Source: a virus
Direction: 5' to 3' (one strand)
Virus record (IMG/VR): IMGVR_UViG_3300010376_000020
Location: 1 to 41,518 of that record
DNA length: 41,518 nucleotides
Shown here in pieces: positions 8,282 to 41,518 of this stretch. Position numbers and translations under genes: made by a program. How positions within the stretch are numbered: the first letter of the stretch is position 1; the number at the start of each line of letters is the position of its first letter. Under the pieces are notes generated by a model. That model did no database searches and was not told where the DNA came from. It saw nothing but the letters and a program-made list of their open reading frames with translations.

Positions 8282-11065
8282 TTAGGGTGAGAATGCGGGC
8301 GAGACGTTTTTCAGATAACTCGCCACGGCCTGCGCGGTCTGCTGTGGGCTTTGCGCGCCGTTGATGGTGATATTCACCGTGAGAGGCATGGTGGCCAATT
8401 TTTTAATGTTGGTATTGATGTTGTCGGTGTCGCTCAGGAGGCCGACCCAGGCATCGTGAATCCAGGTGTTGATATTCAACAAAGGCGTGGTATTGACGGC
8501 AATGATGTGCAGCCAGTCCTGCACGCCGCCGCCGCCCAGACCCCCGATGAACATCGCGGTTTCGCGGGTGTTGAGCTCGATCGAGCGCAGGATGTCGGTC
8601 TGATGCGCATTTTGGATGTCGCCGATGACGCCGGTGACGAAAGAGCCCACCGCGCCGATGGCGCCCACCATGCCCATCGCACCGGAGAGCGCGCCACCGA
8701 CCGCGCTCGAAACTCCGCCACCCCCGCCTCCGCCGGGAAGGGGCAGGCCTGCTCCGCCTCCGCCTCCGCCTCCTCCGCCGCCTCCGCTAGGCCCGAAGAT
8801 CTTGGTCCACATCCCGCCCAAATCCGAGAGCTTCGACATCAGCGCATCGATCCCCTGCTTGATGAGCTTGTTCAGGATCACGTCGAGCACGTCCTGCCCG
8901 AGCTTGGTGAAGGCCTGCGAAAGATTGCCGGTTTGCAAGATCACGTCACTGATGCCTTTGGCGAGGTCGCGGTCAATAGCCTGGCCAATTTCCTGGCCCA
9001 TCGATTTGCCGGCGGTAGTGGCGGTCAGGAAATGCTCGCGCATCTGATCCGTGGCGCTAATCTGCGCCTGCGTCAGGACCGGCAGATTGCCCAGCTCGAT
9101 TTCCGTACCTTGGATATCGGTTGTGAGCTCCTGTACGCTCACGCCTGCATTTTTGGCGGCTGTCTCTAGTTGCTTGTAGGCTTCTTCCACCTGACTGCCA
9201 GAAAGCGTGCCCCAATTCACGAGTTGGACATAAGCGGTCAGCAGATCCTGGTACTGCTGCTGGTTTTTGGTGGTCTGGTCCTGAAGCTTGACCATCGCAT
9301 CGGTGACACCGCCCATCGCAGGCGGCACGTCGCCGATTTTGCCCGCAAGTTTATCCCAGTCGTCGATTTGCTTTTGGATGTTCTTGTCAACGTCCGCAGT
9401 GACCTTCTCGAGGCCCACGCCGTTCTGGAGGACGTAATCGTTCAGGATCTTCAACGCATCCGAGACTTGCGCGAAGCCGAGCGAGCCCTGGGCGCCGGCC
9501 TGGACCATCTCGGCCTGGAGCCGGATAAACTCGTCGTAGAGCTTGGAAACGTTGATACCCGCAGCAGCCTCGTTCCATTGCTCATCCAGGCCCGCGAAAC
9601 CTCGCTGGAACTGATCGAAAGCCTTCTGGGCGCTGTCATCGAGGGTCTTGAAGGGATTGGTTTCTCCGATAAGGCCTAATTCTTTGAGCTGTGCAATCGT
9701 AGAAACCGTGGCGCTTGTAGTTTGTGTCAGCGTGTTTCCGAGGCCTGCTATGCGCGTTCGAAACTGCTCTACACTCTCTCCGGTCTGATCGGTTTTCTGC
9801 TTCTGATCCCAGAAACCCGCGCTCACTGCCGCCATGTGCTCGCGGATGTAGTCCAGCTCGGTGCCGATATCGGTGTTGTTTTTGTAGGCCCGGATCGCCG
9901 CTGCGGCCAGGGTTGCGGCTTCGGCCAGCGCCTTCCATTCTGCGACGAACTGCTGTAGCGGCGGGATGAAATCGGTCCACTTGATGCCCAGTCCGCCCGT
10001 TCCAGTCAATTCCTTGAGCGGAGAGAGAACCTCGGCAACCGTGGTTTTGAGAACCGAAAAAGCTCCCGCCGCCTCGACCACGGCGTCCGCCAGCGGTTTT
10101 ACGAGGCCGGCCGCCTGGCCGATCAGGGGTATGAGCGGCTGGATGGCATTCAGCACCGTGATGATGGCTGGTGCTAAGGCGTTGCCCAATTCCTCGGCCG
10201 CGAACTCAAATTGCGTTTTTGCGTTCTGCCAAGTGCCCGCCAGATCGCCGGCGGTGGCTTGCGCGGTGCCCGCAAATTTTTGCAGAGCAAGATCCAATGC
10301 TTCAACGCGGTCAGCCACATCCATCGACTTGAAGAGGTTTTTAACCTGATCGTCAGCCACGCCCAGGACTTTCGCGAGATCATCCGTGGTTAGCCCAAGG
10401 CTAGCCAGCGTGCGCCCCATCGCATTGCCGGATAAACCGATCCGGTCGATGGTATCGGCAACGGTAGTAAAATCCGTTCCCAAAGCACGCGAGGCATCGG
10501 CTGCGGCCTGCAGGGTCGTCATCGTCTCTTCGGTCGAAAAGCCGAGTGCGGTCATGCGCTGCGCGGCTTGCGCGAGGGATGGGAAGCTCAATGCATCCGA
10601 GAGAGCTAGAGCCTTGAGGTCTTCGATCATCCCGGCCGCAACTTCGCCTGAACCCGTCAGCGCGGTAAGCGACGTTTCCACGCGCTGGACTGCGGCGTAG
10701 GTTTCCACTGCCTCAGTCACGAATTCCTTGAGGGTTTCGACAATTTGTTCGAGCCCGACATTGAATCCAGCAAATTCAGCCGCGAGATTCAGCGATTCCC
10801 CGAAGCCCTCAAAGGCGCCAGCGCCTTCGTGCGCGCCTTCTCCAGCCTGCTGAGCGGCTTGCCCGAGTCCTTCGACTTGCGGCGTAGCTTCACTAGCCGC
10901 CGCCCCCAATCCACCTGCATCTTGTGCAGCGGCAGTAAACGCCCCCGCGATCTCCTGCCCACCCGCCTGCGATGCGGCTACTGCGGCATCAATGGCCGCT
11001 TGCAAGTCCGACCAGTCGCCGATAATGTTTACATCGATATCGCCGATGCTCGCAGCTACCGACAT
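8282..11065 (-). CDS. Tail tape measure protein
   Basis: 927 aa, A/Q/L/G-rich and helical, lying directly after the chaperone pair (TAA then ATG, adjacent). The C-terminal part carries poly-Gly tracts (GGGGGGGGGGAGLPLPGGGGGGG). Size and position are canonical for a siphovirus tape measure. Confidence 0.85.
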   Translation of the reverse strand: MSVAASIGDIDVNIIGDWSDLQAAIDAAVAASQAGGQEIAGAFTAAAQDAGGLGAAASEATPQVEGLGQAAQQAGEGAHEGAGAFEGFGESLNLAAEFAGFNVGLEQIVETLKEFVTEAVETYAAVQRVETSLTALTGSGEVAAGMIEDLKALALSDALSFPSLAQAAQRMTALGFSTEETMTTLQAAADASRALGTDFTTVADTIDRIGLSGNAMGRTLASLGLTTDDLAKVLGVADDQVKNLFKSMDVADRVEALDLALQKFAGTAQATAGDLAGTWQNAKTQFEFAAEELGNALAPAIITVLNAIQPLIPLIGQAAGLVKPLADAVVEAAGAFSVLKTTVAEVLSPLKELTGTGGLGIKWTDFIPPLQQFVAEWKALAEAATLAAAAIRAYKNNTDIGTELDYIREHMAAVSAGFWDQKQKTDQTGESVEQFRTRIAGLGNTLTQTTSATVSTIAQLKELGLIGETNPFKTLDDSAQKAFDQFQRGFAGLDEQWNEAAAGINVSKLYDEFIRLQAEMVQAGAQGSLGFAQVSDALKILNDYVLQNGVGLEKVTADVDKNIQKQIDDWDKLAGKIGDVPPAMGGVTDAMVKLQDQTTKNQQQYQDLLTAYVQLVNWGTLSGSQVEEAYKQLETAAKNAGVSVQELTTDIQGTEIELGNLPVLTQAQISATDQMREHFLTATTAGKSMGQEIGQAIDRDLAKGISDVILQTGNLSQAFTKLGQDVLDVILNKLIKQGIDALMSKLSDLGGMWTKIFGPSGGGGGGGGGGGAGLPLPGGGGGGGVSSAVGGALSGAMGMVGAIGAVGSFVTGVIGDIQNAHQTDILRSIELNTRETAMFIGGLGGGGVQDWLHIIAVNTTPLLNINTWIHDAWVGLLSDTDNINTNIKKLATMPLTVNITINGAQSPQQTAQAVASYLKNVSPAFSP

Positions 11066-14100: not shown

Positions 14101-15609
14101 CTACTTTTTGTTGTGCTTGGCCTCCGTGTCGCGCTCGGGTTCCTTGGCCGCATGCGGAGTGCCACCTGGATGCGGACCGCCGGTGGAAGCTTCGGCCAGC
14201 AATGCGCCCGAGCCCGTTCCTTGGCTATAGACGGCCATTAAGGGGTCCAGTAAACACCCACCCTTCACCGTACGTATCTTGTAATGGATCGAATCTGTGT
14301 CGAAGTCTCCTTCCATAGGATTCGCATTTGCCGTGCCTGGCATCACGCCCGGTCCGGGCCCCATCTGTCCCTCGCCGATCGCCACCGCGTTGGGCAGCTT
14401 CATGAACAGCTCCGGCGTCTTGTGCCCGCGCAGGAAGCCCATCTCGATGGCCGGACGTCCCGACTCGGGATTGGCGAACAGATACCAGCCGGTGTTGCCA
14501 TAAGTCGTGTCGACGATCGGCAGGTAGTAATTGACCGCCAGGCGCACGATGTTCTTGGCCCAGTTCATGGCGTGGAGCATCTGCGCGATCATCGGCGTAG
14601 TGCTGCCTTGAATCACCGTGCCGCCCTGGTCGGCCATGAACACGTAATCGGTGTTCAGGATGTTCTGAGCGACGGTCTTGAGCGACGGCGGCACCACCAG
14701 CGTCATGGCTTCGATCGAGATGGGATGGCCCGTGGTATCGACCTGCTTCATCATCACGATCATGGCCCGCTGTAACGAGTGAATCGAGAGCGCGGGTTGA
14801 TCCGCGCCGGTGTCGCCGACCAGTGCGCCGGTGACGATGTTTTTGTTGGCGGCGCTGAAAAACGTCGAGTTGTTGGCGAACAAGGCGGTGCAGAAGTACT
14901 CCTCTTCGCGCCGGGCGCCGCGGCCAAATCTGGCCGGCGTGTCCTTGATGGCTTGGAGATCGTCGTTGACGAAGGTCTCCCAATAGAACGGCATGCGCTT
15001 GCCGCGCTTAAAGAGCTCGTACGTGTACGGCGCCGGGACGGCCAAAGAGTCCTCGGGATAGTTCGCGCCACGCTCCAGCGGGACCAGGCCGCCGAAAGCC
15101 GTGAGGGTGGGGTCTGTCGGCCCCAGCAGCCCGGTGCCGCCGTCGACGCGGAAGCGCTTCACGGGCCGGAAGTCGTTGACCTCGGCCTCGTGCGCGATCA
15201 TATTCCAGGTGTAAGGCGTCTCGACGTAGTTGGCGAGCACGGCGCGGTCGATGACATCACCGAACAGGTTCGGGAAATCGCCGATCGACATCGCTTCTTG
15301 AAGATTCAGCAAGTCGCGCTTAGAGCCATTGAAGCCGCGATAGATCAAGCGTGCGGCTTCCGATAACCGCGATTCGTAGCGGCGCCGGCGCCAAACGTCG
15401 GAATAGACCTCGCGCACCCGGTGGGTCATATTGGCGAAGCCCGGCTCGTTGACGGTACGCGGCGCGCCGCTCCACTCGCCCAGCTCGGCTGAGGAAACGC
15501 GGCCGGGATTGAAGCCCTCATGCGCCGGATGGGTCGTCGCGGAAGGCAGGCCGGTAATGCGCGGGCTGAAGTCGCCCCAATTTTTCACTACATCGTCAAG
15601 TGGAGTCAT
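14101..15609 (-). CDS. Major capsid protein (putative)
   Basis: 502 aa with ATG 15609 and an AAGGAAA SD. It lies after the scaffold/protease candidate and the decoration-like protein and before the connector genes. The call rests on synteny and size only. Confidence 0.55.
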   Translation of the reverse strand: MTPLDDVVKNWGDFSPRITGLPSATTHPAHEGFNPGRVSSAELGEWSGAPRTVNEPGFANMTHRVREVYSDVWRRRRYESRLSEAARLIYRGFNGSKRDLLNLQEAMSIGDFPNLFGDVIDRAVLANYVETPYTWNMIAHEAEVNDFRPVKRFRVDGGTGLLGPTDPTLTAFGGLVPLERGANYPEDSLAVPAPYTYELFKRGKRMPFYWETFVNDDLQAIKDTPARFGRGARREEEYFCTALFANNSTFFSAANKNIVTGALVGDTGADQPALSIHSLQRAMIVMMKQVDTTGHPISIEAMTLVVPPSLKTVAQNILNTDYVFMADQGGTVIQGSTTPMIAQMLHAMNWAKNIVRLAVNYYLPIVDTTYGNTGWYLFANPESGRPAIEMGFLRGHKTPELFMKLPNAVAIGEGQMGPGPGVMPGTANANPMEGDFDTDSIHYKIRTVKGGCLLDPLMAVYSQGTGSGALLAEASTGGPHPGGTPHAAKEPERDTEAKHNKK

Positions 15610-15620
15610 TGTGGTTTCCT

Positions 15621-16043
15621 TTAGCTGATCCCGTCTTTCAAGCTGACCCGCACCATTCCCGTATTACCGGCCGTCAGGTTCGTCTCCGCCAGGCCCACCA
15701 GGAAGCCACCGGTAGCGGTGTTATTCAGCGTGTTGCCATAGCTGATTCCCGATGGAGCATCCGTGGTGCCGAGATGCACATAAATCGGCGTCCCTGGCGT
15801 GATGTTGGTCGCTACGGCGGCCACCGAGAGGTTGAAAGAGCCTTCCGTATCGAGCGTGAGATAACCGCTATTGGAGTAATACGGCGGCTTGGTGGTCATG
15901 TTCTGGCCGTCATTGGCGATGCCAATGAGGTTCGGTCCGGCCGCGGGCCCAAAGACCAGCACATCGCCGGGGGCGATCACGGCGGCACCCGGCATCTTGA
16001 GCTCAATGCCGGTGAGGCGTTCGCGGGTTTTATTGGCAGCCAT
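15621..16043 (-). CDS. DUF2190-like small head protein (decoration-like)
   Basis: 140 aa, G/A/T-rich and beta-type (GDVLVFG, GIANDG). TAATG overlap with the upstream gene. It sits between scaffold and capsid genes, where DUF2190 / decoration-type genes are usually found. Confidence 0.5.
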   Translation of the reverse strand: MAANKTRERLTGIELKMPGAAVIAPGDVLVFGPAAGPNLIGIANDGQNMTTKPPYYSNSGYLTLDTEGSFNLSVAAVATNITPGTPIYVHLGTTDAPSGISYGNTLNNTATGGFLVGLAETNLTAGNTGMVRVSLKDGIS

Positions 16044-17770
16044 TAGGCGGCCCTCCCTTCCTTGAAGATCCGGCGCATGCGTTTGCGCTCCATGCGCTGA
16101 GCTTCGCTCTGCTCGCCTTCGTTGATCTTTTTGCCCACGAAGACATCCGCGAGGCGGCTCATGGATTCATCAAACTGCTCTTCCCATGCCTTGCCATCGT
16201 CCTCGGTGAGCTTCTTAATCTCGGCCTCCGTCATGCGCGTGCCCATCGAAGCCACTCCGTTTCCGTAGCCGAGTTGCGCCAGAAAGCGCGCCTCTTCGAT
16301 GGCTGCGCTTTCGACCAACTTGGCGAGAGCTTCGGTGTCGATTTTGCCGTCTTTGAAGGGCAGTAAAGGCGTAAGCCGCTCAGCGATGCGGCCGCGCGTG
16401 AGCGCAACGACATGCGGAGGCCCGGGCAGACGGATTCCGTTCAAGGCTTCGCTAATCGCTTGCGCGCCTTCCTTTTCCCGCACCATGCTTTCACGTAATG
16501 AGCGAATCTCATTCTTGAGCTCGCGTATGTCGGCTGCGTCCATACTTTCTCCTTCCAATGCGGACTCGAGCAGGAGCTTCCCGTCGCGTCCCGCTTTGGT
16601 GACTAAATCGATTGAATCGGCGCTCGTCAGCCGCTCGATCAGGCCCGGCTTACCGTCCGGCGCCTTGCGATTACCCTCGGCATAAAGGCCGCGCGCCCGG
16701 ATCGAAACGCCAGTGAACGGCGCTTTCTCCTGCACTTGCTGGGCGTACTCGCTGAAGACCTTCGCCGGCGCATAGAGCGCGGCCCCGTCTTTTCCGTGCT
16801 CGTCCCAGTAGGCATCTCCGGTAGTAACAGCCGCGAGCTTCGACCAGTCGCCTTCCGGCCGCTCGGCTTCCTCCGCCGGCGTGGCGTGATTGATATACAT
16901 CAGCGTGCCGCGCTTGAAGATCTGCGGGCCGTCGCGCTCGAGCACTTCCTTGGTGTAGTAGCCGGACGAGCCGCGGCCAGGCGAGATGATCTTGACGAGC
17001 GGGTTGACGGCGGTGGCTTCCTGGAATTGGTAACCGGCTTCGAAAGCCGCGGATTCGACCAGCCGCACGCCTTGACTGGCCCCTGGCCCCTGGCCCCTGG
17101 CCCCTTCTTCCTTGCTATCGCCGTCCTTGCCGTCTTTCTCTTCGTCCTGCCAGGATTGCGGCAAATGCTTATGCCAGCCCTTGCGCTTGGCGATCGCCTT
17201 GATGTTGCGCTTTAAGCTTCCGGCGCTCTGGCCGCCGGCCACGCCCCGGCCGATGGAGTGAACGGCGGCCATTACGTCGGAAGGACGCAGGATCGGAAAG
17301 GACCGGCCGGTGCCCGCAAAATCGGAAGTATCGGCCGCGTCTCTTTCCGATTTCGAAATGAAGCGCTCTCGAAGCGGTCGATACTTCCAGGTTAAGGAAC
17401 CGGGGAATCGCTCGACGAATTTCTTCTTCCCTTCCGCCTCGCCCATGCCCTCGATACCGTCTTCGTCCGCTTCCTCGTCATAGACCGTACGCGGCAGCAC
17501 GTCGACGGCGTTTTCTGTGTCGATCGAGTGCGTACGCTTGCCGGCATCAAAGCCGATCTCATAGGGCGCGCGGTAGTATTCGCCGTCTTTCTGGTACACC
17601 ACATCGCCCGAATCGTCGTCGCCGAACACGTCGCAGATGTAGCAGCAGCAAGCGGGGTAGAGATCGTGAAGGCAATCGGCGAGGCCGCGCGAGATATCGG
17701 AGTGGGAGAGCTCTTCGCCGGCTTCCTGAAGGCTCAGGGCGAGAGCTTCATAGGCGGGGGATAATGGCAA
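16043..17770 (-). CDS. Capsid scaffolding / prohead maturation protein (putative); start uncertain
   Basis: 575-aa ORF. The first codon at 17770 is TTG and has no SD. There is a very acidic central linker, and the segment ISPGRGSSGYYTKEVLERDGPQIF..GTLMYINH resembles protease/scaffold N-domains. The C-terminus is a long charged coiled coil typical of scaffolds. It lies directly upstream of the capsid genes. Confidence 0.45.
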   Translation of the reverse strand: MPLSPAYEALALSLQEAGEELSHSDISRGLADCLHDLYPACCCYICDVFGDDDSGDVVYQKDGEYYRAPYEIGFDAGKRTHSIDTENAVDVLPRTVYDEEADEDGIEGMGEAEGKKKFVERFPGSLTWKYRPLRERFISKSERDAADTSDFAGTGRSFPILRPSDVMAAVHSIGRGVAGGQSAGSLKRNIKAIAKRKGWHKHLPQSWQDEEKDGKDGDSKEEGARGQGPGASQGVRLVESAAFEAGYQFQEATAVNPLVKIISPGRGSSGYYTKEVLERDGPQIFKRGTLMYINHATPAEEAERPEGDWSKLAAVTTGDAYWDEHGKDGAALYAPAKVFSEYAQQVQEKAPFTGVSIRARGLYAEGNRKAPDGKPGLIERLTSADSIDLVTKAGRDGKLLLESALEGESMDAADIRELKNEIRSLRESMVREKEGAQAISEALNGIRLPGPPHVVALTRGRIAERLTPLLPFKDGKIDTEALAKLVESAAIEEARFLAQLGYGNGVASMGTRMTEAEIKKLTEDDGKAWEEQFDESMSRLADVFVGKKINEGEQSEAQRMERKRMRRIFKEGRAA

Positions 17771-17825: not shown

Positions 17826-18458
17826 GTGGCAAAGTTTAGGCGCACATGGAAGGGCCCGGTCCAAGGCTGTCCGATTACGCAGCCGCACGCCTCTAGAAGT
17901 TGCCTTTCCTGTCGCAGCGCCAAGTTGAGGCGCTATCGTGTCGATGGCAAATACAAGTGGACCTCAACAATCAAAACGCGAGCGCGAGCCGTCGTCAATA
18001 TGCGAAAAAAGCGGGGAAGTCTTATCCCCGAATCTTGTCAGGATTGTGGCGCGGCCAAGGTGGAGGCTCATCATGAAGACTACTCAGAGCCGGATAAGGT
18101 CATTTGGCTTTGCCGCCAATGTCATCGATCCCGGCATTCACATATGAAACGTCCGGCAAAGATCCGCACATGCTGCTGGGAGGGTTGCGAGAATTTGCGC
18201 CTCGCGACCCGTACCTATTGCGACCATCATTGGGCCGAATATCAACGCGGCTATCGCATCGATGAGGAGTTGAAGAAATCTACCGCCGCGTTTTTGGATG
18301 GCGTGGACGCGTGCGTGCGCTACCTGCGCGAACAGGTCGGCGACCGAATGACGACCGGACGGCAAGCGGCGCAATTACTCGCCCGGATCGGGCAGGGTGA
18401 AACGCCGGAGCAGGCGCAACGCAGGCAGTTGATCGAGTCGATGAAAGCAGGATCATAA
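17826..18458 (+). CDS. HNH endonuclease
   Basis: 210 aa with a GTG start. The motif CQDCGAAKVEAHHEDYSEPDKVIWLCRQCHRSRH is the classic phage HNH signature (C-x2-C ... HH-x-DY ... WLC-x2-CH-x3-H). It lies on the opposite strand to the flanking late genes. Confidence 0.8.
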   Translation: MAKFRRTWKGPVQGCPITQPHASRSCLSCRSAKLRRYRVDGKYKWTSTIKTRARAVVNMRKKRGSLIPESCQDCGAAKVEAHHEDYSEPDKVIWLCRQCHRSRHSHMKRPAKIRTCCWEGCENLRLATRTYCDHHWAEYQRGYRIDEELKKSTAAFLDGVDACVRYLREQVGDRMTTGRQAAQLLARIGQGETPEQAQRRQLIESMKAGS

Positions 18459-20181: not shown

Positions 20182-21027
20182 TTAGCTGAAGATCAACGCC
20201 GCTTCCGCCGCCCCAACCGCCAGCTCCACCGTCGCGCGCGCCTCTTCTGCGATAAGATCCTTCTCGCCTTCCATCCGCGCCACCACATCCGGCGTAATGA
20301 GCCAATGCAGTTTACCCTTGGGCCGCCGCGCTTCATACAGCCGCACGCCTTCTGCTGGCTGCCGATCGCTCGCATACACGCGTACGCGCCGGTCGGCGCT
20401 TTCGATGACGCAAGTACAGTTCGGATGCAAGGGCGGCTCGTCCAGATCGCCGTCCGGCCCTTCGAAAACATCATCCATGTCGATCCAGCCGAGGTCCGCG
20501 GCATCCTCGCAGAAATCGCAATTTCCAGACTTCCCGCCGTCGCCGAGCACCAGGCGCTTCTGCGGCATTTCGTCGTAGTAGTATTCACCTTTGGCTTCAG
20601 TAGCGCGGCCAGTCGTTTCAAAGTGCGCCACAGCAGCGTGCGCGAAATGATGGTTCTCGCCGCTGCCGCCGGTCAGCAAGCCGAGGATAGTGCCGACGAG
20701 CGGCCCATGGCTCACTGCAATGACGTTATCGGCTTTGAGCCGCCGGCCCTGGCGCTGCATCTCGGCAAGCGCTTCCTCGGGCGTCGAATTGGGGTCGAGC
20801 TTGTGGCTGCGCGTGCGAGCGGCATCGAGCCGATCGGCTACGCGCTTGGCGGTCTGGATCGAGCGCCGCATGTTGGATTCCATCACCAGCGCGGAGCCGG
20901 AGGTCTGATGCTTGAGCCATTTGCCCATGAGCTTGGCTTGGGCTTTGCCGGTATCGGTGAGAGGCCGGGTCGGGTCGAGCTGCTCGCCCTCCTCGGCTTC
21001 CGCGTGGCGCATCAGATACAACTTCAT
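20182..21027 (-). CDS. SixA-like histidine phosphatase domain fused to MuF/SPP1-gp7-type C-terminal motif
   Basis: 281 aa. The N-terminal part has LYLMRHAEA, RPLTDTGKAQA, RRSIQTA and VSHGP, which together form a histidine-phosphatase (SixA-like) signature. The C-terminal part has GNCDFCEDA...EPPLHPNCTCV, the terminal motif of MuF-family minor head proteins. The gene lies downstream of the portal. Confidence 0.6.
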   Translation of the reverse strand: MKLYLMRHAEAEEGEQLDPTRPLTDTGKAQAKLMGKWLKHQTSGSALVMESNMRRSIQTAKRVADRLDAARTRSHKLDPNSTPEEALAEMQRQGRRLKADNVIAVSHGPLVGTILGLLTGGSGENHHFAHAAVAHFETTGRATEAKGEYYYDEMPQKRLVLGDGGKSGNCDFCEDAADLGWIDMDDVFEGPDGDLDEPPLHPNCTCVIESADRRVRVYASDRQPAEGVRLYEARRPKGKLHWLITPDVVARMEGEKDLIAEEARATVELAVGAAEAALIFS

Positions 21028-21057: not shown

Positions 21058-21231
21058 TCAAGCGTGTAGGATCCCGAAGATTCGCAGCAGATACAAGATC
21101 AGGATCAAAATGATCACCACGTTAATCAGCGTCTTGATCGGCGGCGGCAGCGGGACGTATTGCTGCACCAGCCATAGAATGACGCCCACGATTATCAGAA
21201 CGATGACAACCTGAATGAGAAGCGCGATCAT
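21058..21231 (-). CDS. Small two-TM membrane protein (resembles Thivi_2564-type family)
   Basis: 57-aa ORF not in the supplied track. ATG 21231 has GGAGGCC upstream. Sequence: MIALLIQVVIVLIIVGVILWLVQQYVPLPPPIKTLINVVIILILILYLLRIFGILHA. Confidence 0.55.
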   Translation of the reverse strand: MIALLIQVVIVLIIVGVILWLVQQYVPLPPPIKTLINVVIILILILYLLRIFGILHA

Positions 21232-21240
21232 GGCGGCCTC

Positions 21241-21552
21241 CTATCCGAAAATCTGCTTGAGCCAGGCCGCTTTGCCGGGCGTCTTTTTGGGCACAACGTC
21301 GAAGCCTGCCGGCAATTGCGTCTCGACACCGGGCGGTTTGCGGTTGGCTTCAAAGCGGTCCTGGCGGGCCATCTCGCGCAGTTCCATCGCAGCCGCGCCG
21401 AGGCGCTTGCTGCTCAGGATATCCGCGATGCACTCGACGTTTTCTTCATCGCCGAGGAAGCACCAGGCGAGGACGGCGTGAGTCTGCGTGTGGATGACCT
21501 CGGCGAGGTTGCCGCGGCGCTCGATGCGGACGTTGGGCTTAGTGTCAGGCAT
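21241..21552 (-). CDS. Hypothetical protein
   Basis: 103 aa from ATG 21552, which overlaps the upstream gene end by 8 nt (ATGCCTGA). No motif recognised. Confidence 0.45.
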   Translation of the reverse strand: MPDTKPNVRIERRGNLAEVIHTQTHAVLAWCFLGDEENVECIADILSSKRLGAAAMELREMARQDRFEANRKPPGVETQLPAGFDVVPKKTPGKAAWLKQIFG

Positions 21553-21763
21553 ACAGACATTCCGGATCATGCGATTCGCCTTGGAACACATCCGCTCCGC
21601 ATTCGCAGCAGCATGGAACGGTGAAGATACTATCCTCTTCGTCCACGTCTCGCTCGCCTAGGCAATGCTCACAATTCTCCTGAGCGTCCCTATCGCCTGT
21701 ATCGGTATCGTCAACGTCACCGTTGCAATAACACGCCTGGCCGCACTCTGGACAACTATGCAT
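21545..21763 (-). CDS. Small acidic Cys-rich (zinc-ribbon-like) protein
   Basis: 72 aa. It has CPECG..CYC at the N-terminus and CEHC and CCCECG later, and is very rich in D/E. It lies immediately downstream of the portal stop. Confidence 0.5.
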   Translation of the reverse strand: MHSCPECGQACYCNGDVDDTDTGDRDAQENCEHCLGERDVDEEDSIFTVPCCCECGADVFQGESHDPECLYA

Positions 21764-21772
21764 TAGTATTCA

Positions 21773-23638
21773 TTAGCGCCGTCCATTTCCGATCAATTGC
21801 GCCCGCTCCCGAATCTCCCGCAGCACGCTCAGCGCTTCCTGCGCGGCCGCGCCCTTCTCCGGCGGCGGCGTCCCTTTCCCCGGCTCGCCCTTGCCCGGCG
21901 GCGGCATCGTCTGCGGCGCGGCTTGCGTGCGCTGATCCTCCACATCCGCTTTGGGATCGTAATCCGCGCCGTAAATCTTGTCGAGCAACTGGGTGCGGTT
22001 CTCGTAGCCCACTTCGGCCAGCATTCCATCGACGACCGTCCTCCGGTCGATCCCGCCTGCGTAGATGCCCTGCCGCCCGCCGTTGGTAGCGATATCCACC
22101 CAGGCCTGCACCATCGCGTGCACGTCGTGTTCGAGCACCGCCGGGAACTTGACAATGATCTGGATAGGCTGTGGCGCCGGGTTCTTCCCGCGGGCCTCGC
22201 GCATCTTTGTACCGGGCGTCTGTCCCGCCACCATCAGCACGTATTCGAGCACGCGTGTCAGCGTCTCCACCCAGCGCTGCTGGATCTCTCGAAACTTCAG
22301 CTCCGTCGGCCGGTCGAGCGAGACGGCCGTGGCGAGCGATCCCGTAGAGGCATCCCCAAAGAACGTCTCGGGCAACCCGGTGGCGGCAGCGGCCATGAGC
22401 AGAACCCGTCGTGCTTGCTCGGGCGCCGTTTGCGTGCCGGCCGTTTTGAACGGTGTGATCTTGTTGTCCGGTCCTGCGACATGTGCTGCTCCTACTGCAG
22501 GCGGCGGGTTGCGTTCGATTTGCGTGCCGCCGGCATCCGCAAAGGTCGTTGTGAGCAGAGCCTGATAAGCCGCGATCGCCGCGGGTCCGCCCTTGGTTTC
22601 GACATTCAGCGCGAAGCGCGCGAGCGACTTCTGCACGGTGGCCCAATCCTCAAGAAAGTCCTTGTACGCCCGCGCCCAGTCGATGGCCGCATAGATCGGC
22701 GGAACCGGCCAGCGCCACTTTGCCGGGGACCCGCCACCATGGACGCGATAAATCGGCATCTCCCAATTGACCGGCACATCGCCCAGCGATTGCGGCTTCT
22801 CTTTCGGATTCGAGAGCAGGTATTCAAGCGAGGGATACCAGGCTTTCTTCGCTTCGCCGGGCTGTGTGCCGCTGTGCGTTTGGATGTTTAACTGGTTCCA
22901 GTGCCGCAGGTAGTACCAGATGCGGCCGGTATCGTCGGGATCGCAGAGCACGTCCATGATTTCGAGCGGATCGATGGTCGATACTGTGATCTCGCCAGCG
23001 GCGTTGGCCGGCAGAGCGAAATACAGAGCGCCATCGGTCTGAATGGAGTTTTCGTCATTCGCGAGCGCAGTGTGGCTCAACTGCGCGGCATTGAGCTTCA
23101 AAAAATCCTGAATCGTTTCGTTGGCCGTCTCATCTTCAGCACGCATCTCGATGCCGCGGCCGAAGACGTACATGCGGCAGATTTCCGCGCCGCGCTTGAT
23201 GATCGGGTTTTTCAGCGCGTAGAGGCGCGAGATGCGGATGAGCTGCTGCACGCCGTAGCGCGAGAATTCGAGCATGGCGAGCGTGGTTTCGCGAATCCAG
23301 CCGCGGTCTTCGAGAGCTAATTCGAGCTCCCACAGCCGCTCTCGCAACTCAACTGGAGTGTTGACGGGCACGGCCAGTGCGCCGGTTTCACGGATGCGCT
23401 CGTAGGCTTGCGGATTGACGCAGGCCAGCTCGGCTTCGCGCAAGACCAGCATTTCGTGCATGCGGAGGCGGAGCTGGTGGCGCTGGTATTGGAACTCTTC
23501 GGCGAGGAGGGAATCGGATTCGGAGGCCCGCGTGGCGGAACGGGCCTCCCGGATGGCGTCACCGGCGCGGGTCAGCAGCTCACGAACAGGCGAGAGGTTA
23601 AGAGCGCGGGTCGTGAGCCAGCCGCGGAGCGAGCGCAT
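21773..23638 (-). CDS. Portal protein (putative)
   Basis: 621 aa, the only ORF of portal size between the terminase and the head genes. The C-terminus is acidic and Pro-rich. The call rests on size and position; no clear SD at ATG 23638. Confidence 0.6.
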   Translation of the reverse strand: MRSLRGWLTTRALNLSPVRELLTRAGDAIREARSATRASESDSLLAEEFQYQRHQLRLRMHEMLVLREAELACVNPQAYERIRETGALAVPVNTPVELRERLWELELALEDRGWIRETTLAMLEFSRYGVQQLIRISRLYALKNPIIKRGAEICRMYVFGRGIEMRAEDETANETIQDFLKLNAAQLSHTALANDENSIQTDGALYFALPANAAGEITVSTIDPLEIMDVLCDPDDTGRIWYYLRHWNQLNIQTHSGTQPGEAKKAWYPSLEYLLSNPKEKPQSLGDVPVNWEMPIYRVHGGGSPAKWRWPVPPIYAAIDWARAYKDFLEDWATVQKSLARFALNVETKGGPAAIAAYQALLTTTFADAGGTQIERNPPPAVGAAHVAGPDNKITPFKTAGTQTAPEQARRVLLMAAAATGLPETFFGDASTGSLATAVSLDRPTELKFREIQQRWVETLTRVLEYVLMVAGQTPGTKMREARGKNPAPQPIQIIVKFPAVLEHDVHAMVQAWVDIATNGGRQGIYAGGIDRRTVVDGMLAEVGYENRTQLLDKIYGADYDPKADVEDQRTQAAPQTMPPPGKGEPGKGTPPPEKGAAAQEALSVLREIRERAQLIGNGRR

Positions 23639-27829: not shown

Positions 27830-27867
27830 CTATACTCTAGTGTATAGACAGAAATGTATAATGTCAA
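27830..27867 (-). promoter_or_regulatory. brnTA promoter/operator: TTGACA (rc of 27862..27867), weak -10, and 18-bp near-perfect palindrome CTATACTCTAGTGTATAG (27830..27847) abutting the ATG
   Basis: Read directly. The palindrome has one mismatched central pair. There is no SD before ATG 27829. The -35 hexamer overlaps the terL stop codon. Confidence 0.5.
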
Positions 27868-29219
27868 TACCTCGAAATCACCACCGGCTCCATGAACGCC
27901 ATCGCCACGGTCCGCTCCTCCGGCTCCACCACCAGGTCCGTCACCGCCCACACCAGCGCGTCCATCCGGTCCGGCGACCGCATGTCTGCATCCGGCGCCC
28001 ACTCGCACATCTGCTGCTCGAGTTCCGCGAGCCGGCCGACATGATGCACCCGGCCCTGCTCGTACAACGCCGCCACCGGCTCCGCGCGCACCGCTTTGCC
28101 GCGGGAAGCACGCACCGCGCGAAACGCGACTTCCGGAGCAACGGCCCGGATGTTGGCTTCGACCAGATCGCCGCCGTTGTTCACCTCGCCCACGATCCGG
28201 TCAGCGCGCTGTGTCCGGTACGCCGTCACCGCAACCCGCGCCCAGCCGAGCGGCGTTTCCCGGCAGCTCAGGTCGTCGAGCACGATCACGTGATTCGCCC
28301 GGGTGAGCGCCGCCACGACGATGCCGGTCTCGGCGGAGTCTTCCTCATGCGACACCGCTGGATCGATTGCCACCACGATGCGAATGATCGCGGTCCAATC
28401 GACATCGTGGGAGCCGATGCGCGCCGCGTCGATCTGCTGTTGCTTCCACAATGCGCCGGGATGATCTTCCAAAATCTCGGCCATCAGCTCCTGCCGGCCG
28501 AGGCGCGTGCCTTCATAGCGCTTGATGATCGAGTCGAAGAACGCGACCGACAGATTGGCGCGGTTGTCGTAGGTGGTCGCGCGCGTCACCACGGTGTGCG
28601 GCTCGGCGAGAATTTCCTTGAGTACCGCGAGCGGTTTGGGTGTCGTCGTGATGATGCCGCGCGGATCGTCGCCCAAGCGCCAGCCGAATTGCAGGTTGTC
28701 CCAGGCTTCGCGCAGGTAGCGCCAGGCGGCGACCTCGTCGGCTGCGAAATGGCTGCACTGCGGGCCGCGCAAACGCTCAGGTTCATCCGCGCTGAATAGT
28801 TCGGCAACTGCCCCGGTGTGAAACTTAATCAGCCGCTTCGAAGGCTCGTATTCCGGACGCTGATGGCGCGGGAAGCAGTTGAGCAGACCGCTCTCGCCCA
28901 GGACCATCACGTTGCGCACGTCGGCCGCCGTCGGTCCCACCAGATGAATCCGCTTCGCGCCCTGCTCCACCCACTGCCGCACCGTTTCGCCGCCACATCT
29001 CGTCTTGCCGAAGCCGCGGCCGGCGAGCACCACCCAGATGCGCCAGTCTTTGCGCGCGTCGGCCGCGTCGTCCGAACCCGGCGGAAGCTGCGCGGGCCGC
29101 GCCCAGAAGCGCCAATCGTAAAGCAGCTCTTCAGCTTGCTTGGGCTTGATCGCTTTCAGAATTTGCTCCCGCTTCGAGACGGGCAGCCGCGCTAAGGATT
29201 CGGCCACGGAATAAGTCAT
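27864..29219 (-). CDS. terL: Terminase large subunit
   Basis: 451 aa from ATG 29219. The Walker-A-like segment VVLAGRGFGKTRCG is followed by HLVGPTAADVRNVMVLGESGLL, a pattern I associate with Terminase_6 / GTA-like large terminases. A C-terminal nuclease-like acidic region is present. The start is uncertain; the ORF is open to 29486. Confidence 0.85.
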   Translation of the reverse strand: MTYSVAESLARLPVSKREQILKAIKPKQAEELLYDWRFWARPAQLPPGSDDAADARKDWRIWVVLAGRGFGKTRCGGETVRQWVEQGAKRIHLVGPTAADVRNVMVLGESGLLNCFPRHQRPEYEPSKRLIKFHTGAVAELFSADEPERLRGPQCSHFAADEVAAWRYLREAWDNLQFGWRLGDDPRGIITTTPKPLAVLKEILAEPHTVVTRATTYDNRANLSVAFFDSIIKRYEGTRLGRQELMAEILEDHPGALWKQQQIDAARIGSHDVDWTAIIRIVVAIDPAVSHEEDSAETGIVVAALTRANHVIVLDDLSCRETPLGWARVAVTAYRTQRADRIVGEVNNGGDLVEANIRAVAPEVAFRAVRASRGKAVRAEPVAALYEQGRVHHVGRLAELEQQMCEWAPDADMRSPDRMDALVWAVTDLVVEPEERTVAMAFMEPVVISRY

Positions 29220-29631
29220 AGGCTCGGTGTTCGATTTGGATCGGATCGCCGTTCGGTCCGCTGATAGCGTGCTCATAGCGCTCGCGGTATTTTTCCGGCG
29301 CTGCGCCTTTGAGCAGGAAAATGAGCAGCGTGTCGGAATATTCGCGGATGGTGACGCGCTTGCCCGCCACCGTCGTCGGTTTGTTAACGCCCTCGACGGC
29401 GCGCCGCCACGCTTCGTCTTCGAGCAGTTGCACGATGGCTTTGCGGGCCTTTTCGAATTGCGCCTTGTATTCCGGGTCACGATCAAGCCACTCGTAGTGA
29501 TTCCTGCGATGCAGACCGACCACCTCGAAGGCTTTATCTATCCGGCCGACTTCCTGGTAGCGCATCAGCACGGCCATTTTGGTGGCCTTCAAGTGGCCCA
29601 GCTTTTTAGGACGTGCGATTACGCGACTCAC
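29131..29631 (-). CDS. terS: Terminase small subunit (putative)
   Basis: 166 aa from GTG 29631 (GTGA overlap with the upstream stop), or 148 aa from ATG 29577. It has an HTH-like N-terminus, and the segment SDTLLIFLLKGAAPEKYRER is typical of small terminases. It lies directly upstream of terL and overlaps it. Confidence 0.6.
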   Translation of the reverse strand: MSRVIARPKKLGHLKATKMAVLMRYQEVGRIDKAFEVVGLHRRNHYEWLDRDPEYKAQFEKARKAIVQLLEDEAWRRAVEGVNKPTTVAGKRVTIREYSDTLLIFLLKGAAPEKYRERYEHAISGPNGDPIQIEHRAYDLFRGRILSAAARLEAGANSESDQAQAS

Positions 29632-31280: not shown

Positions 31281-31963
31281 CGTGCCCTCAGAGCGGCCAT
31301 CAATTCGGCTTGCTCGGCGGCGCTTAGATGCGCGCGGATAGATTTGGCAAAGCCGTTTACGGTCGCCGGATGCTGGATCATTACTGGCCGGAATCCAGCC
31401 ATTACTGCTGCTGCGTTCGCCGATAGCTCGCCGACTTCCACTTTGCGCGCAAGGTCTGGACGGTCGCGCTTCAATCGGACGAGAACGCCAGTAGGACTCT
31501 CATGATGAAAGCCCCGCATATTATGCGTAGCTTTCTTTCCTCTTCCCCCCATCGCGCCCGCTTCCGCATGAGTCTTGGCTTCTGGCGTAAGCTCGCGAAT
31601 AATCCGCAGCGCGATCTCCGCGTCTTCCTCGCCCTTATAAGCTGCACAAATGCGCTTTAAACCCTCCGCTCCTTCCGGAACATCCAGACCTTTGGGCCAT
31701 TTTGCCCGCGCGAATTTATCAAAGTCTGAGTCAGCGTAATCGAATACCTTCCCGAAATCATCCGCATAATGCTGCCACGCTTTGGTTTCCAAGGCTTGCC
31801 GCAGAAAACGCGGACAGTTTCGGAAGGCGTCCGCGCCATAAGTCGCCGTGCGGGCGAGCTCGCGAACGATTTCCAGGTTCTTAATCGCCCGCGCATCCGG
31901 CCAGGGACATTTATCGGTATGCGGAATCGGCTTGATCAGCAAGGCGTTGTGTGAGCCACGCAT
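31277..31963 (-). CDS. Putative DNA-binding protein (KorB/ParB-like HTH tail)
   Basis: 228 aa from ATG 31963 with a GGAG SD. The C-terminal segment RLKRDRPDLARKVEVGELSANAAAVMAGF is a motif I associate with phage/plasmid DNA-binding proteins. It overlaps the helicase 3' end by 53 nt. Confidence 0.4.
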   Translation of the reverse strand: MRGSHNALLIKPIPHTDKCPWPDARAIKNLEIVRELARTATYGADAFRNCPRFLRQALETKAWQHYADDFGKVFDYADSDFDKFARAKWPKGLDVPEGAEGLKRICAAYKGEEDAEIALRIIRELTPEAKTHAEAGAMGGRGKKATHNMRGFHHESPTGVLVRLKRDRPDLARKVEVGELSANAAAVMAGFRPVMIQHPATVNGFAKSIRAHLSAAEQAELMAALRAR

Positions 31964-33758
31964 ATTTACGCTCCAATTCTTTAACCGGCGCCTGGGCTTG
32001 ACGGCTGCCCCCCAGGGAAGCCATCCATTCGTTGTGTACCTTTTGAACTTCGACCGAAAGCAGTTTCGATAATTTGAAAGCCATCGCATTGCATTCACGC
32101 CTAAGCCTCTGCTCCTGTTCATATTCCGGCTCAGGACAGGGAGGAGACTTCTCGCTGCGTTCCTCGTGATCATGCAGGAACAATAAGGCCGCAATTTGTT
32201 CGTCATGGGCTTCCGTTATGCCCACGCGTTGACGCAGGTCTCTGGCATAGCTGATTTGATCGGCTGAAAAAGTCGCACCGGTCGAGATCGTGTCCGCATC
32301 CTCTGCCGCCGTTTCCAATACGTGAAACGTCCCGTTTTCCGTACGTTCACCCGGGGTTCGCTCCTGCGGCTGCCTCCTTTTCGGCTCTTCCAGCACATGC
32401 GCGATTTCATCTTCAATCTCTTGTGCCAGCGCCCGGAGTTCGGGATGATTCGGCAGAAAGACGAATGCTCGCTGGAGCTTCACGCCTTCGCTCATCCGCA
32501 CCACGCGGCCCACGGCTTGCCGGAAAAAAAGCGGCGCCCGCCAATCCGTGGCATAGACCAAAACTGCCAGCCGATCGATATCCACACCCTCGCTAACCAT
32601 GCGCACCGCGACCAGCCAGCGGCGATCCGACTCGCGAAAAGCGTCGATGCTGGTGGCCTCCTCATGGTCCGAGATCACAAGGTCCGCACGCTCGTTGGTT
32701 ACGCTTTCGATGAGCCGCTTGTACCGCTCTGCCGCTTCACGGTCGGACGCAATGATAAGCCCGCCCGCATTGCGATGTCCCGCTTTCCGGCAATCCGAGA
32801 GTTTTTCGTTCGCCTGGCGGCACAGTGTCCGCATGTAATCGCCAGCCGGATTCAACAGCGCCCACATCCGCTCCCGGTCCAGCGATGGCGGCAGCTCGTC
32901 TAGAAGCGTGGCCTGCTGTTCCCCTTCGCACCCAATCCAATGAGCACTCCCGTCCTTCATGGGAAAATGCACCACCCGGCAAACCTTGTCACGGATGGCA
33001 TCCGCATATCCATACGTGAAATCAGCAATACTTTGCCAAGTGTTCGGTTTATCGTCGACAGGTTCGTAGTGCACAAAGGGAATCCGCACACCGTCCGAGC
33101 GAAAGGGCGTGCCCGATAATCCCAGCCGGAATTCTGCGCCGCCAAAAGCGGTCTGCGCTGCTTCACCCCATGTACCTTCGCCCAGATGATGCTGCTCGTC
33201 GAAAATGACCGCCGTCGATTTCCTCGCGCATAACTGGCGGTGCATGTGTTGTTGAGAGGCAAGACTCTGATAAGTCACAACCAGGCCCTGATAAGTCGAG
33301 CTTTCCGGATGATCGCCGCTCCAGTTCGGATTTAGCGCAATCATTCCCGCCGCCTTTTTCGCCCACTGATATTTGAGCGCTTCCGTCGGCACTACCACTA
33401 CCAGTCGCCGCGCCCGCCCTCGGAGCAGTTCCGCACTCGCCCGTATGGCCGCGTGAGTCTTGCCGGAACCCGGAGTCGCAGCCAGAAGATAATCCCGTAT
33501 CTCCGGGCTGCGATTTTTGAAATGCGATAAAAACCTCTCTTGCCAATCGCGTATAGTCATATTGGATGTGCCTTTCTGCCGGTTACAGTCGGGGCAGAGC
33601 GCCTGCCCGTTGAAAACATCCGTGGGGCCGCCGGTCGCATATGCCTGTATGTGATCGGCGTTCCATCCTTGCATTAATTCGGCCCCGCATCGAGCGCAAC
33701 ACCCCTCCGCCTGAAGATACAGGGCCCGGCGTTCGCCAAGAGAAAAGAAACGTTTCAC
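31911..33758 (-). CDS. HNH endonuclease domain fused to SF2 (DEAD/DEAH-like) helicase
   Basis: 615 aa with a GTG start. The N-terminal 65 aa carry CARCG...ADHI...GG...N.QALCPDCNRQKG (HNH). They are followed by ATPGSGKT (Walker A), FDEQHH (motif II), SGTPFRSD (motif III) and QAVGRVVR (motif VI). Confidence 0.8.
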   Translation of the reverse strand: MKRFFSLGERRALYLQAEGCCARCGAELMQGWNADHIQAYATGGPTDVFNGQALCPDCNRQKGTSNMTIRDWQERFLSHFKNRSPEIRDYLLAATPGSGKTHAAIRASAELLRGRARRLVVVVPTEALKYQWAKKAAGMIALNPNWSGDHPESSTYQGLVVTYQSLASQQHMHRQLCARKSTAVIFDEQHHLGEGTWGEAAQTAFGGAEFRLGLSGTPFRSDGVRIPFVHYEPVDDKPNTWQSIADFTYGYADAIRDKVCRVVHFPMKDGSAHWIGCEGEQQATLLDELPPSLDRERMWALLNPAGDYMRTLCRQANEKLSDCRKAGHRNAGGLIIASDREAAERYKRLIESVTNERADLVISDHEEATSIDAFRESDRRWLVAVRMVSEGVDIDRLAVLVYATDWRAPLFFRQAVGRVVRMSEGVKLQRAFVFLPNHPELRALAQEIEDEIAHVLEEPKRRQPQERTPGERTENGTFHVLETAAEDADTISTGATFSADQISYARDLRQRVGITEAHDEQIAALLFLHDHEERSEKSPPCPEPEYEQEQRLRRECNAMAFKLSKLLSVEVQKVHNEWMASLGGSRQAQAPVKELERKYAWLTQRLADQADSAYR

Positions 33759-33810
33759 TCCCGCCCCCTAAAAAGCTGCGCCCCGGCGCGTGCGTACCCG
33801 TTCCCGCACG

Positions 33811-33837
33811 TGTGTACTTTACGAGTACAGAATCGTC
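33811..33837. repeat. 27-bp direct repeat, copy 1 (candidate integrase arm-type site)
   Basis: TGTGTACTTTACGAGTACAGAATCGTC is identical to 33996..34022. It contains the internal inverted repeat TGTAC-N7-GTACA. Confidence 0.85.
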
Positions 33838-33948: not shown

Positions 33949-33995
33949 TTTCCTCGCTGTATTTGTCTCGTCTTTCCAGTAACATCCAATCCACC

Positions 33996-34022
33996 TGTGT
34001 ACTTTACGAGTACAGAATCGTC
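33996..34022. repeat. 27-bp direct repeat, copy 2 (candidate integrase arm-type site)
   Basis: Identical to 33811..33837. It lies 14 nt from the integrase stop codon. Confidence 0.85.
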
Positions 34023-35298: not shown

Positions 35299-35398
35299 AT
35301 CCTCGCTTTCATGCCGAAATTCATTCGGTATGAACCCGATTGTAGCAATTGGTTGCGGTTCGTGGCGTTTCATGTTATTCTGCGTTCTGTAAGATCTT

Positions 35399-35605
35399 AT
35401 GCCCACCCAAAAAGCACCGTCCCGTATCACCGTGATGGAAATCCGTAAGGATCTCGGCTTAGGCCAACGGCGCGTCTATTTCATGCTGAAGAACAACATC
35501 ATTCCGAATGTGCGTCTGGGCCGGTCCTGGATCGTTGCGCGCCACGCCTACGAACAATGGAAGCAAACCGCCGGCATGGGCAAATCCACTCCAGACCTTC
35601 CATAA
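35399..35605 (+). CDS. xis: Excisionase / MerR-type HTH DNA-binding protein
   Basis: 68 aa, or 56 aa from ATG 35435. ITVMEIRKDLGLGQRRVYFMLKNNIIPNVRLGRSWIVARHAYEQW fits the excisionase-family HTH. It is divergent from int. Confidence 0.7.
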   Translation: MPTQKAPSRITVMEIRKDLGLGQRRVYFMLKNNIIPNVRLGRSWIVARHAYEQWKQTAGMGKSTPDLP

Positions 35606-37223: not shown

Positions 37224-37387
37224 ATCCGTTTCCACCAGCAGGTCAGGCGCACCCACCAGCCCGGATGCCGGCGCCGGTAGTCAGCCTCCATCAGCACCCG
37301 CCGCACGTCGATGGAGACGATTGCCGCCGCCTGGCCCGCCAATCGTTCCGTGCGCGTCCAGTGGCGGGATTCGGATAGCTCCCTCAT
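37214..37387 (-). CDS. Hypothetical small basic/Trp-rich protein
   Basis: 57-aa ORF not in the supplied track (MRELSESRHWTRTERLAGQ...WWVRLTCWWKRICH). ATGA overlap with the upstream stop, GGGAG SD, and its stop lies 8 nt inside the next gene. Confidence 0.45.
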   Translation of the reverse strand: MRELSESRHWTRTERLAGQAAAIVSIDVRRVLMEADYRRRHPGWWVRLTCWWKRICH

Positions 37388-41355: not shown

Positions 41356-41518
41356 CTATAGGAAATTCTGGATCGCCGTCTCGGTCGCCGTCTGCAGCGC
41401 GGCGTCACTGATCGTGTCACCCGCCGCCTGGACGCCCGGGTCCATCACCACGGCGGGCTGAACGGCCTGCGCCTTCACATCGGGCGCTTGGATACACTCC
41501 TGCGCCCACCGGAAACGA
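41356..41518 (-). CDS. 3' part of the junction-spanning 112-aa ORF (see 1..299)
   Basis: The frame from ATG 299, carried through the terminal repeat, ends at TAG 41358..41356. Confidence 0.55.
   Translation of the reverse strand, partial: RFRWAQECIQAPDVKAQAVQPAVVMDPGVQAAGDTISDAALQTATETAIQNFL
41396..41518. repeat. Terminal direct repeat, copy 2 (identical to 1..123)
   Basis: Direct reading. Confidence 0.95.

Follow-up and report, generated by a model that had tools for sequence, protein, structure and literature searches.

MuF proteins of tailed phages, such as SPP1 gp7, Mu gpF and 80alpha gp44 (PF04233), are encoded after the portal gene and end in a C-terminal cysteine knuckle of the form C-x2-C ... 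PP(L/A)HPNCxC. SPP1 gp7 binds the portal within the capsid, where it is present in a few copies, and helps infection to start (PMC6316719), and 80alpha gp44 is described as an ejection protein that binds genome ends and needs to be packaged for full function (PMC7290940). MuF is a recognised carrier of toxin and effector domains (PMC5576092, PMC5512222, PMC3482391) and has been seen as a capsid-targeting carrier (PMC5512222, PMC5576092, PMC6316719). Among the means by which tailed phages bring enzymes into cells it is the best documented, and the questions it raises concern the part that forms the capsid address and the breadth of its cargo. The phosphohistidine phosphatase SixA was first described on the HPt domain of ArcB. 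In Escherichia coli, SixA also dephosphorylates NPr (PMC6282199, PMC7948535) and Ndk (PMC12934123). Here we analysed a 41,518-nt stretch of viral DNA (IMG/VR record IMGVR_UViG_3300010376_000020, positions 1 to 41,518; hereafter the window), in which a gene of the head module encodes a SixA-type histidine phosphatase with a MuF C-terminal knuckle inserted into it (the SixA/knuckle gene).

A preliminary description made from the sequence had placed this gene at 20182-21027. The interval holds an intact open reading frame (ORF) of 281 aa, but the strand had to be corrected to minus, and plus-strand translation of the same interval is unrelated to the SixA/knuckle protein. All peptides quoted there are present in the product (LYLMRHAEA, RPLTDTGKAQAKLMG, SNMRRSIQTA, AVSHGPLVGTILGLL and GNCDFCEDAADLGWIDMDDVF...DEPPLHPNCTCV). 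The N-terminal body of the protein is a SixA-type histidine phosphatase with its active-site residues intact, and the complete domain is made of residues 1-140 plus 237-249. Pfam His_Phos_1 (PF00300) matched with E 3.6e-11 (43.5 bits against a cut-off of 21.7), and the NCBIfam sixA equivalog TIGR00249 scored 77.7 bits over residues 1-139, above its curated cut-off of 74.5; weaker NCBIfam matches included PspA, CobC and PmrG. When all PDB sequences were searched with phmmer, E. coli SixA (1UJB) was the sole match (E 4e-9), colinear over residues 1-133. In this alignment R7-H8, R21, R55 and H107 (107/108) were matched, with R7-H8-A9 opposite R7-H8-G9. An AlphaFold2 model of the whole protein, built on 63 relatives, reached a mean predicted local distance difference test (pLDDT) score of 87.6. 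Its best Foldseek match was again 1UJB (E 3.9e-10, template modelling score TMt 0.72); 4HBZ, 2RFL and 3F2I were also in the top set (TMt 0.66-0.72), and larger superfamily members ranked lower. The compact, cap-less alpha/beta fold of SixA is present, though split by an insertion. None of R7, H8, R21, R55 and H107 varies among 33 relatives that are 45-85% identical to the window protein, and R21, R55 and H107 are also invariant columns when cellular SixA is included in the alignment. Because the profile, PDB-sequence, fold and conservation tests agree, the SixA assignment is solid. The RH motif, the phosphate pocket, the curated profile and the fold are all those of SixA, far beyond chance, and the histidine-phosphatase fold anticipated for the N-terminal part was found by structure prediction. 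The domain is likely to be enzymatically competent.

The second element, the knuckle, is a MuF-type module. Profile searches of the two halves gave the expected His_Phos_1/sixA result for the N-terminal half, but Pfam Phage_Mu_F did not match the C-terminal half, and since Pfam and NCBIfam did not detect it directly, MuF homology was shown via relatives and custom profiles. A MuF hidden Markov model (HMM; 138 positions) was built only from bona fide Phage_Mu_F proteins and run on all six-frame ORFs of the window. Of these ORFs only the SixA/knuckle ORF matched (E 6e-12, with 0.21 as the next best value), and the match was limited to HMM positions 90-129. BLASTP aligned the window motif at 57% identity (E 1e-12) with residues 380-414 of the relative P0037, which lie within the Phage_Mu_F match of that protein. 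The mini-domain profile retrieved entries of PF04233 or named 'SPP1 gp7 family head morphogenesis protein' (E 1e-14 to 4e-10), and an exhaustive search of 1.84 billion representatives with the knuckle profile gave 4,537 matches at E <=1e-3, with Phage_Mu_F carried by 88 of the top 143.

The structured core of the knuckle spans about residues 149-218 and is built from a long beta-hairpin, one helix and a small hairpin. The same elements, with the helix after CxxC, were obtained when the mini-domain was modelled on its own with AlphaFold2 (pLDDT 87.2). A fold search of this model against the PDB returned nothing significant, the best match being a DnaJ zinc-finger region (E ~1). Among its first 13 matches in BFVD, nine were named as phage head-morphogenesis, minor capsid or MuF-like proteins, one was annotated 'capsid maturation protease' and three were unnamed (probability 0.41-1.0, TMq 0.45-0.62); their E-values (6e-3 to 1.7) were weak because the mini-domain is short. 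With about 70-80 aa, four invariant cysteines and one histidine, the knuckle is probably a zinc binder. The cysteine motif is the terminal third of a MuF domain, and its MuF type, already recognised in the preliminary description, is borne out by the P0037 alignment, the MuF HMM, the profile matches and the BFVD folds. Rather than as a MuF protein, the SixA/knuckle protein should be described as one that bears the C-terminal module of MuF. A ferredoxin reading of the knuckle was considered separately: knuckle profile A5 gave weak repeated matches to plant-type 2Fe-2S ferredoxins among PDB sequences (E 0.019-1), with CxxC on two cluster ligands. We rejected it, as no ferredoxin appeared in the PDB fold search and the matches are probably an artefact of shared cysteine spacing.

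The knuckle is an insertion into the last SixA beta-hairpin, not a C-terminal fusion. SixA-only relatives and cellular SixA share a pattern in which a short turn links the strand AHF(D/E)T to G-x-L-H-W-L-V-T-P; in the window protein about 96 residues (141-236) part these last two strands. W242 and P246 do not vary when Aeromonas and Shewanella SixA, which end just past the second of these strands, are included in the alignment. In the model, the long hairpin of the knuckle lies between strands E133-139 and E237-244, and the flanking linkers are of low confidence. In the relatives P0018 (292 aa) and P0048 (190 aa), identity is 96% for residues 1-140 and 87% for the tail, and the difference between them is a single clean indel of ~105 aa with the knuckle inside. 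One of these near-identical proteins has the cassette and the other lacks it, which makes the pair a clean natural experiment in domain insertion. The earlier picture of an N-/C-terminal SixA-MuF fusion, with the last ~130 residues as one MuF-type tail, is replaced by a nested arrangement: the MuF piece covers ~141-236 and is only the last third or so of MuF, and residues 237-281 are the last SixA strand and a phage-specific helix. Cellular SixA is without the acidic stretch and the amphipathic helix (257-280). Compared with E. coli SixA, the window protein shares the fold, the catalytic residues and the W..P last strand at 27% identity, but has the ~96-aa insertion in the last hairpin and an added acidic/helical tail of ~30 aa, and is encoded in a phage head module. 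Compared with PF04233 proteins, it shares the post-portal gene position and the knuckle, but the helical N-terminal two-thirds or so are missing and the knuckle is embedded in another domain.

Bases 1-123 of the window recur exactly at 41396-41518. With this 123-nt direct terminal repeat the assembly closes into a circle, giving a complete phage genome of 41,395 bp. The phage is temperate, with an integrase gene at 34036-35430, and siphovirus-like. The SixA/knuckle gene lies downstream of the portal gene, the usual MuF position, as had been noted. This placement recurs in relatives, where the order is portal, one to three small ORFs, the slot occupied by the gene, a variable region, protease/scaffold and capsid. 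The portal is upstream in 14 of 18 related loci and the protease/scaffold downstream in 14 of 18, with portal identities of 30-85%. Terminator-like sites were looked for between the portal and the SixA/knuckle gene on the strand of the gene, and none was found.

In metagenomic relatives five arrangements occupy the slot. Two have a single element, either SixA, in proteins of 180-200 aa, or the knuckle, in proteins of about 95 aa (~60 clusters). In the other three SixA is combined with a MuF element: a knuckle appended behind the helix, a knuckle inserted into SixA (the window gene and about 25 clusters), or full MuF (three clusters and the divergent locus L098). Fusions therefore recur, which the preliminary description had proposed to survey, and they include SixA with full Phage_Mu_F above the Pfam threshold. 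The homologue search found SixA joined to a complete Phage_Mu_F with the same terminal motif in three relatives of 419-432 aa. Against a gathering score of 29.6 bits, Phage_Mu_F scored 40.8 in P0035 and 48.6 in P0039, and 28.1 in P0037; the L098 example was judged by reading its sequence, not by a Pfam scan. The stand-alone knuckle proteins (P0073-P0132, ~95 aa) have the same mini-domain at 60-75% identity and sit in the same slot after the portal, but carry a short N-terminal helix in place of the SixA domain. In a neighbour-joining tree of the SixA core (no support values) the arrangements were interleaved, which suggests repeated gain, loss and rearrangement. Automated pipelines label related proteins 'phosphohistidine phosphatase SixA'. 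A tblastn search of 50,697 GenBank phage records with the SixA/knuckle protein found no relative, and the portal had distant matches only among these records (<=33% identity).

The knuckle also occurs outside SixA. Among the top 143 knuckle-profile representatives it was joined to Phage_portal (12), and further partners were Acb1, a LigT-type 2H phosphoesterase, an ATLF-like peptidase, GNAT and an S78 protease. That effector-type enzymes other than SixA are among the partners agrees with the published picture of MuF as a carrier aimed at the capsid. Tandem double-knuckle proteins were also found (P0180, P0204, P0242). In some relatives inteins sit exactly between HP(N/H) and CxC, equivalent in the window to N203/C204 (about 20418/20419). 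They are of two types, Cys1...HN/C (P0154, P0178, P0234) and Ala1...SN or CN/C (P0193, P0030), the slash marking the junction. This reading rests on the junction sequences and on Pfam Intein_splicing matches in three unspecified members of the 143-protein set. Inteins of two types at the same HPN/CxC site imply that the motif is strongly constrained. As a separate observation, P0031 (438 aa) consists of SixA, the knuckle and a C-terminal extension of ~160 aa (residues about 280-438), which contains a D...E-x-K-like stretch (DIGIEIK) reminiscent of PD-(D/E)xK nucleases; such a layout would match the MuF-toxin architecture. Pfam matched neither this extension nor the intein-like insert of P0030.

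For the window gene, the domain identities, the intact active site, the insertion topology, the kept position, the recurrence and the modularity are established. On this basis we tentatively favour, with slightly less than even confidence, the reading that the product is a minor head-module protein, in which the knuckle would act as a capsid, portal or DNA anchor and an active SixA phosphatase would enter the host with the DNA. For packaging, ejection and action on phosphohistidine proteins we infer the following course. The knuckle, possibly with the phage-specific C-terminal helix, would attach a few copies to the portal or the DNA within the procapsid, in the manner of MuF proteins, and the protein would leave the capsid together with the DNA at infection. 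The SixA domain would then dephosphorylate phosphohistidine proteins of the host, with the result that host signalling or nucleotide metabolism might be reset before any phage gene is expressed; SixA is known to act on NPr of the nitrogen phosphotransferase system (PTS), the ArcB HPt domain and Ndk. A wider form of this reading seems to us rather unlikely: the knuckle would be an autonomous, portable tag for capsid targeting or ejection (alone, in tandem, appended, inserted, or fused to portal proteins or enzymes), by which one temperate lineage would load SixA into the virion as the first virion-delivered phosphohistidine phosphatase, erasing host His-phosphorelay, PTS-Ntr or Ndk phosphorylation at DNA entry.

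Several results weigh against virion delivery of an active SixA. SixA-only relatives occupy the same slot, and at locus L002 there is no knuckle nearby; position is thus no proof of packaging, and the knuckle is dispensable for the role of SixA there. Five SixA-knuckle clusters in the same slot (P0060, P0061, P0062, P0064 and P0069) have lost both catalytic histidines, with the RH motif changed (e.g. RH to RV) and the His of SH(G)P gone. These apparent pseudo-phosphatases point to a non-catalytic role in part of the family and, together with the SixA-only relatives, weaken a simple picture of MuF carrying an active SixA cargo. Neither Phage_Mu_F nor a gp7-family model matched in Pfam and NCBIfam scans of the whole protein or of its C-terminal half (even at E 10), and HMM positions 1-89, the helical part with the RAxxIAxTE motif seen in the family consensus of alignment A6, matched nothing in the protein or in any ORF of the genome. 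Neither half of 80alpha gp44 complements alone (PMC7290940). In MuF toxins MuF is N-terminal and the cargo C-terminal (PMC5576092), whereas the order here is reversed or nested and SixA hosts the MuF piece. Finally, a scan of 185,579 representative genomes for a host returned cellular SixA only (29-38% identity), with no fusion and no prophage.

The same results bear on the strongest rival, in which the protein would be an unpackaged, late 'auxiliary' phosphohistidine phosphatase of the cytoplasm (acting e.g. on Ndk, NPr or HPr) that adjusts nutrient signalling or the nucleotide pools while virions are being made, the knuckle being a zinc-finger-like binding or stabilising module. We consider this unlikely. 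It would account for the SixA-only occupants of the slot and for the absence of two thirds of the MuF domain, and it agrees with the regulation of Ndk and NPr by E. coli SixA (PMC12934123, PMC7948535) and with the listing of viral sixA as a soil viral auxiliary metabolic gene, which is unvalidated (PMC12713726). But the gene lies within the head-morphogenesis block rather than among early or metabolic genes, a position kept over deep divergence; the repeated joining to MuF pieces, including the full domain, is then hard to explain; and the same knuckle is fused to portal proteins.

It is distinctly improbable that the protein is a head-assembly or DNA-end factor, with the SixA fold mainly structural or binding, catalysis secondary or aimed at a phage component, and the usual MuF job of infection initiation or genome-end protection done by the knuckle-bearing protein. 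Such a role would suit the relatives that keep fold and knuckle without the catalytic histidines, the stand-alone knuckle as the commonest slot occupant in related phages, the position of this knuckle as the sole MuF-like element of the genome, and the binding of genome ends by 80alpha gp44 (PMC7290940). The full catalytic set is nevertheless invariant in the large majority of the family, the window protein included, which indicates selection for enzyme activity, and SixA-only versions cannot do the MuF job via a MuF domain. Very improbable, lastly, is a virion-delivered phosphatase of a phosphorylated small molecule (e.g. a nucleotide-derived alarm or defence signal), which would be an anti-defence protein analogous to Acb1-MuF and 2H-MuF fusions: the Acb1 and LigT-like partners of the knuckle, the many small-molecule phosphatases of the superfamily and the weaker PspA, CobC and PmrG matches speak for it, but the best profile is the SixA equivalog, above its cut-off, the best folds are small SixA proteins without the cap sub-domain that small-molecule members usually have, and PADLOC gave no defence-related context.

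The tentatively favoured reading, delivery of SixA with the DNA, differs from the published MuF polymorphic toxins and effector fusions (PMC5576092, PMC5512222). The window protein has in common with them a MuF element, an enzyme and a temperate phage, and it would follow the same logic of delivering an enzyme by targeting it to the capsid. But its domain order lies outside the polymorphic-toxin architecture, in which N-terminal MuF, C-terminal toxin and an immunity gene follow one another, and its enzyme is a regulatory-type phosphatase, not an obvious toxin. No downstream immunity-like gene conserved across the loci of relatives was found, and PADLOC, run on the SixA/knuckle gene and eight neighbours, gave no matches, which together argue against a toxin. 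The main MuF surveys (including PMC5576092 and PMC5512222) mention no histidine phosphatase or SixA cargo, and literature text searches found no publication connecting a histidine phosphatase with MuF, in agreement with the preliminary description, which knew of no SixA-type cargo. New here are the cargo type, the nested topology and a defined minimal portable MuF module. The family isolates a minimal MuF element of ~80 aa that is used in nature alone, in tandem, appended or inserted, and it would add a regulatory phosphohistidine phosphatase to a cargo list dominated so far by nucleases, ADP-ribosyltransferases and alarmone synthetases. If delivered and active, the enzyme would be a phage tool against histidine phosphorylation (two-component phosphorelays, PTS-Ntr, Ndk), a layer of host control that is not so far known to come under attack from the virion, and compact SixA variants of natural origin would become available from the family for work on phosphohistidine biochemistry. 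The features of the gene and of its surroundings are collected in Table 1.

Table 1 Coordinates of the SixA/knuckle gene, its parts and other features of the window; the last two rows refer to related loci
Feature	Coordinates	Strand	Basis or remark
SixA/knuckle gene	20182-21027	minus	Intact ORF, 281 aa; stop codon 20182-20184; 72 homologues
SixA core, residues 1-140 (up to strand AVAHFET)	20608-21027	minus	TIGR00249, Foldseek, phmmer
Catalytic Arg7-His8 codons (RH motif)	21004-21009	minus	Read from sequence; aligned with R7-H8 of E. coli SixA
Arg55 codon (phosphate-binding Arg, SNMRRS motif)	20863-20865	minus	Invariant; aligned with R55 of 1UJB; read from sequence
His107 codon (second active-site His, SHGP motif)	20707-20709	minus	Invariant; aligned with SH of 1UJB SHLP; read from sequence
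Inserted MuF C-terminal knuckle and linkers, residues 141-236	20320-20607	minus	MuF HMM, mini-domain model, BFVD, P0018/P0048 indel
C170-x2-C173, first Cys pair of the knuckle	20509-20520	minus	Invariant in alignment A3, at least 90% in A5 and A6; read from sequence
H201-P-N-C204-T-C206, MuF terminal motif	20410-20427	minus	H, P, C, C invariant (A3); opposite PPLHPNCRC of P0037; read from sequence
Last SixA strand (GKLHWLITP, 237-246), acidic stretch and amphipathic helix (257-280)	20185-20319	minus	DSSP E237-244, H257-280
Portal gene	21773-23638	minus	phrog_10963 portal E 4.6e-63; tblastn to annotated portal proteins; upstream, same orientation as SixA/knuckle gene
Three small ORFs, portal-to-gene interval	21058-21763	minus	ORF list
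72-aa ORF, 12 cysteines, several CxxC pairs	21545-21763	minus	Adjoins portal directly; without family assignment
116-aa ORF	21241-21591	minus	Same position kept in 8 related loci; without family assignment
57-aa hydrophobic ORF	21058-21231	minus	ORF list
HTH_17/AlpA-like DNA-binding gene, 72 aa	19942-20160	minus	22 nt downstream of SixA/knuckle gene, within head module
Head maturation protease/scaffold-like gene	16043-17770	minus	phrog_15531 E 2e-27; downstream end of slot; kept downstream in relatives
Cement protein	15621-16043		
Phage_capsid_4 / Mu-like gpT capsid	14101-15609		
Tape measure	8282-11065		
Large terminase	27864-29486		
Phage_integrase gene	34036-35430	minus	
Stand-alone knuckle locus	L005:7001-7300		
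Stand-alone knuckle locus	L006:7001-7291		

In the interval between the portal and the SixA/knuckle gene, the Cys-rich 72-aa ORF and the 116-aa ORF overlap by 47 nt. The gene after the slot was a different one in each of the relatives examined, often in opposite orientation; in the window it is the HTH_17/AlpA-like ORF. A sigma-70-like promoter match was seen at 20196-20167, inside the 3' end of the SixA/knuckle gene. A variable 'moron' region lies past the HTH_17/AlpA-like gene and includes an oppositely oriented HNH-like gene (17826-18458).

Elsewhere in the window, tRNA genes were looked for and none was found. Directly after the tape measure lies an ORF of 2,013 aa (2238-8279, minus) with zero Pfam or PHROG matches, and the ORF at 31911-33758 (minus) encodes an N-terminal HNH endonuclease domain and a ResIII/DEAD/SNF2-type helicase in one protein. 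A 12-nt unit is repeated in tandem for ~37 periods at 36617-37060, inside the ORF at 36063-37256 (minus, DUF6745), and yields a four-residue repeat in the N-terminal half of the DUF6745 protein. Just past the 3' (stop-codon) end of the integrase gene, a 31-nt direct repeat is present in two copies of 97% identity, 185 nt apart (33807-33837 and 33992-34022), which could be an attachment site or arm-type binding site.

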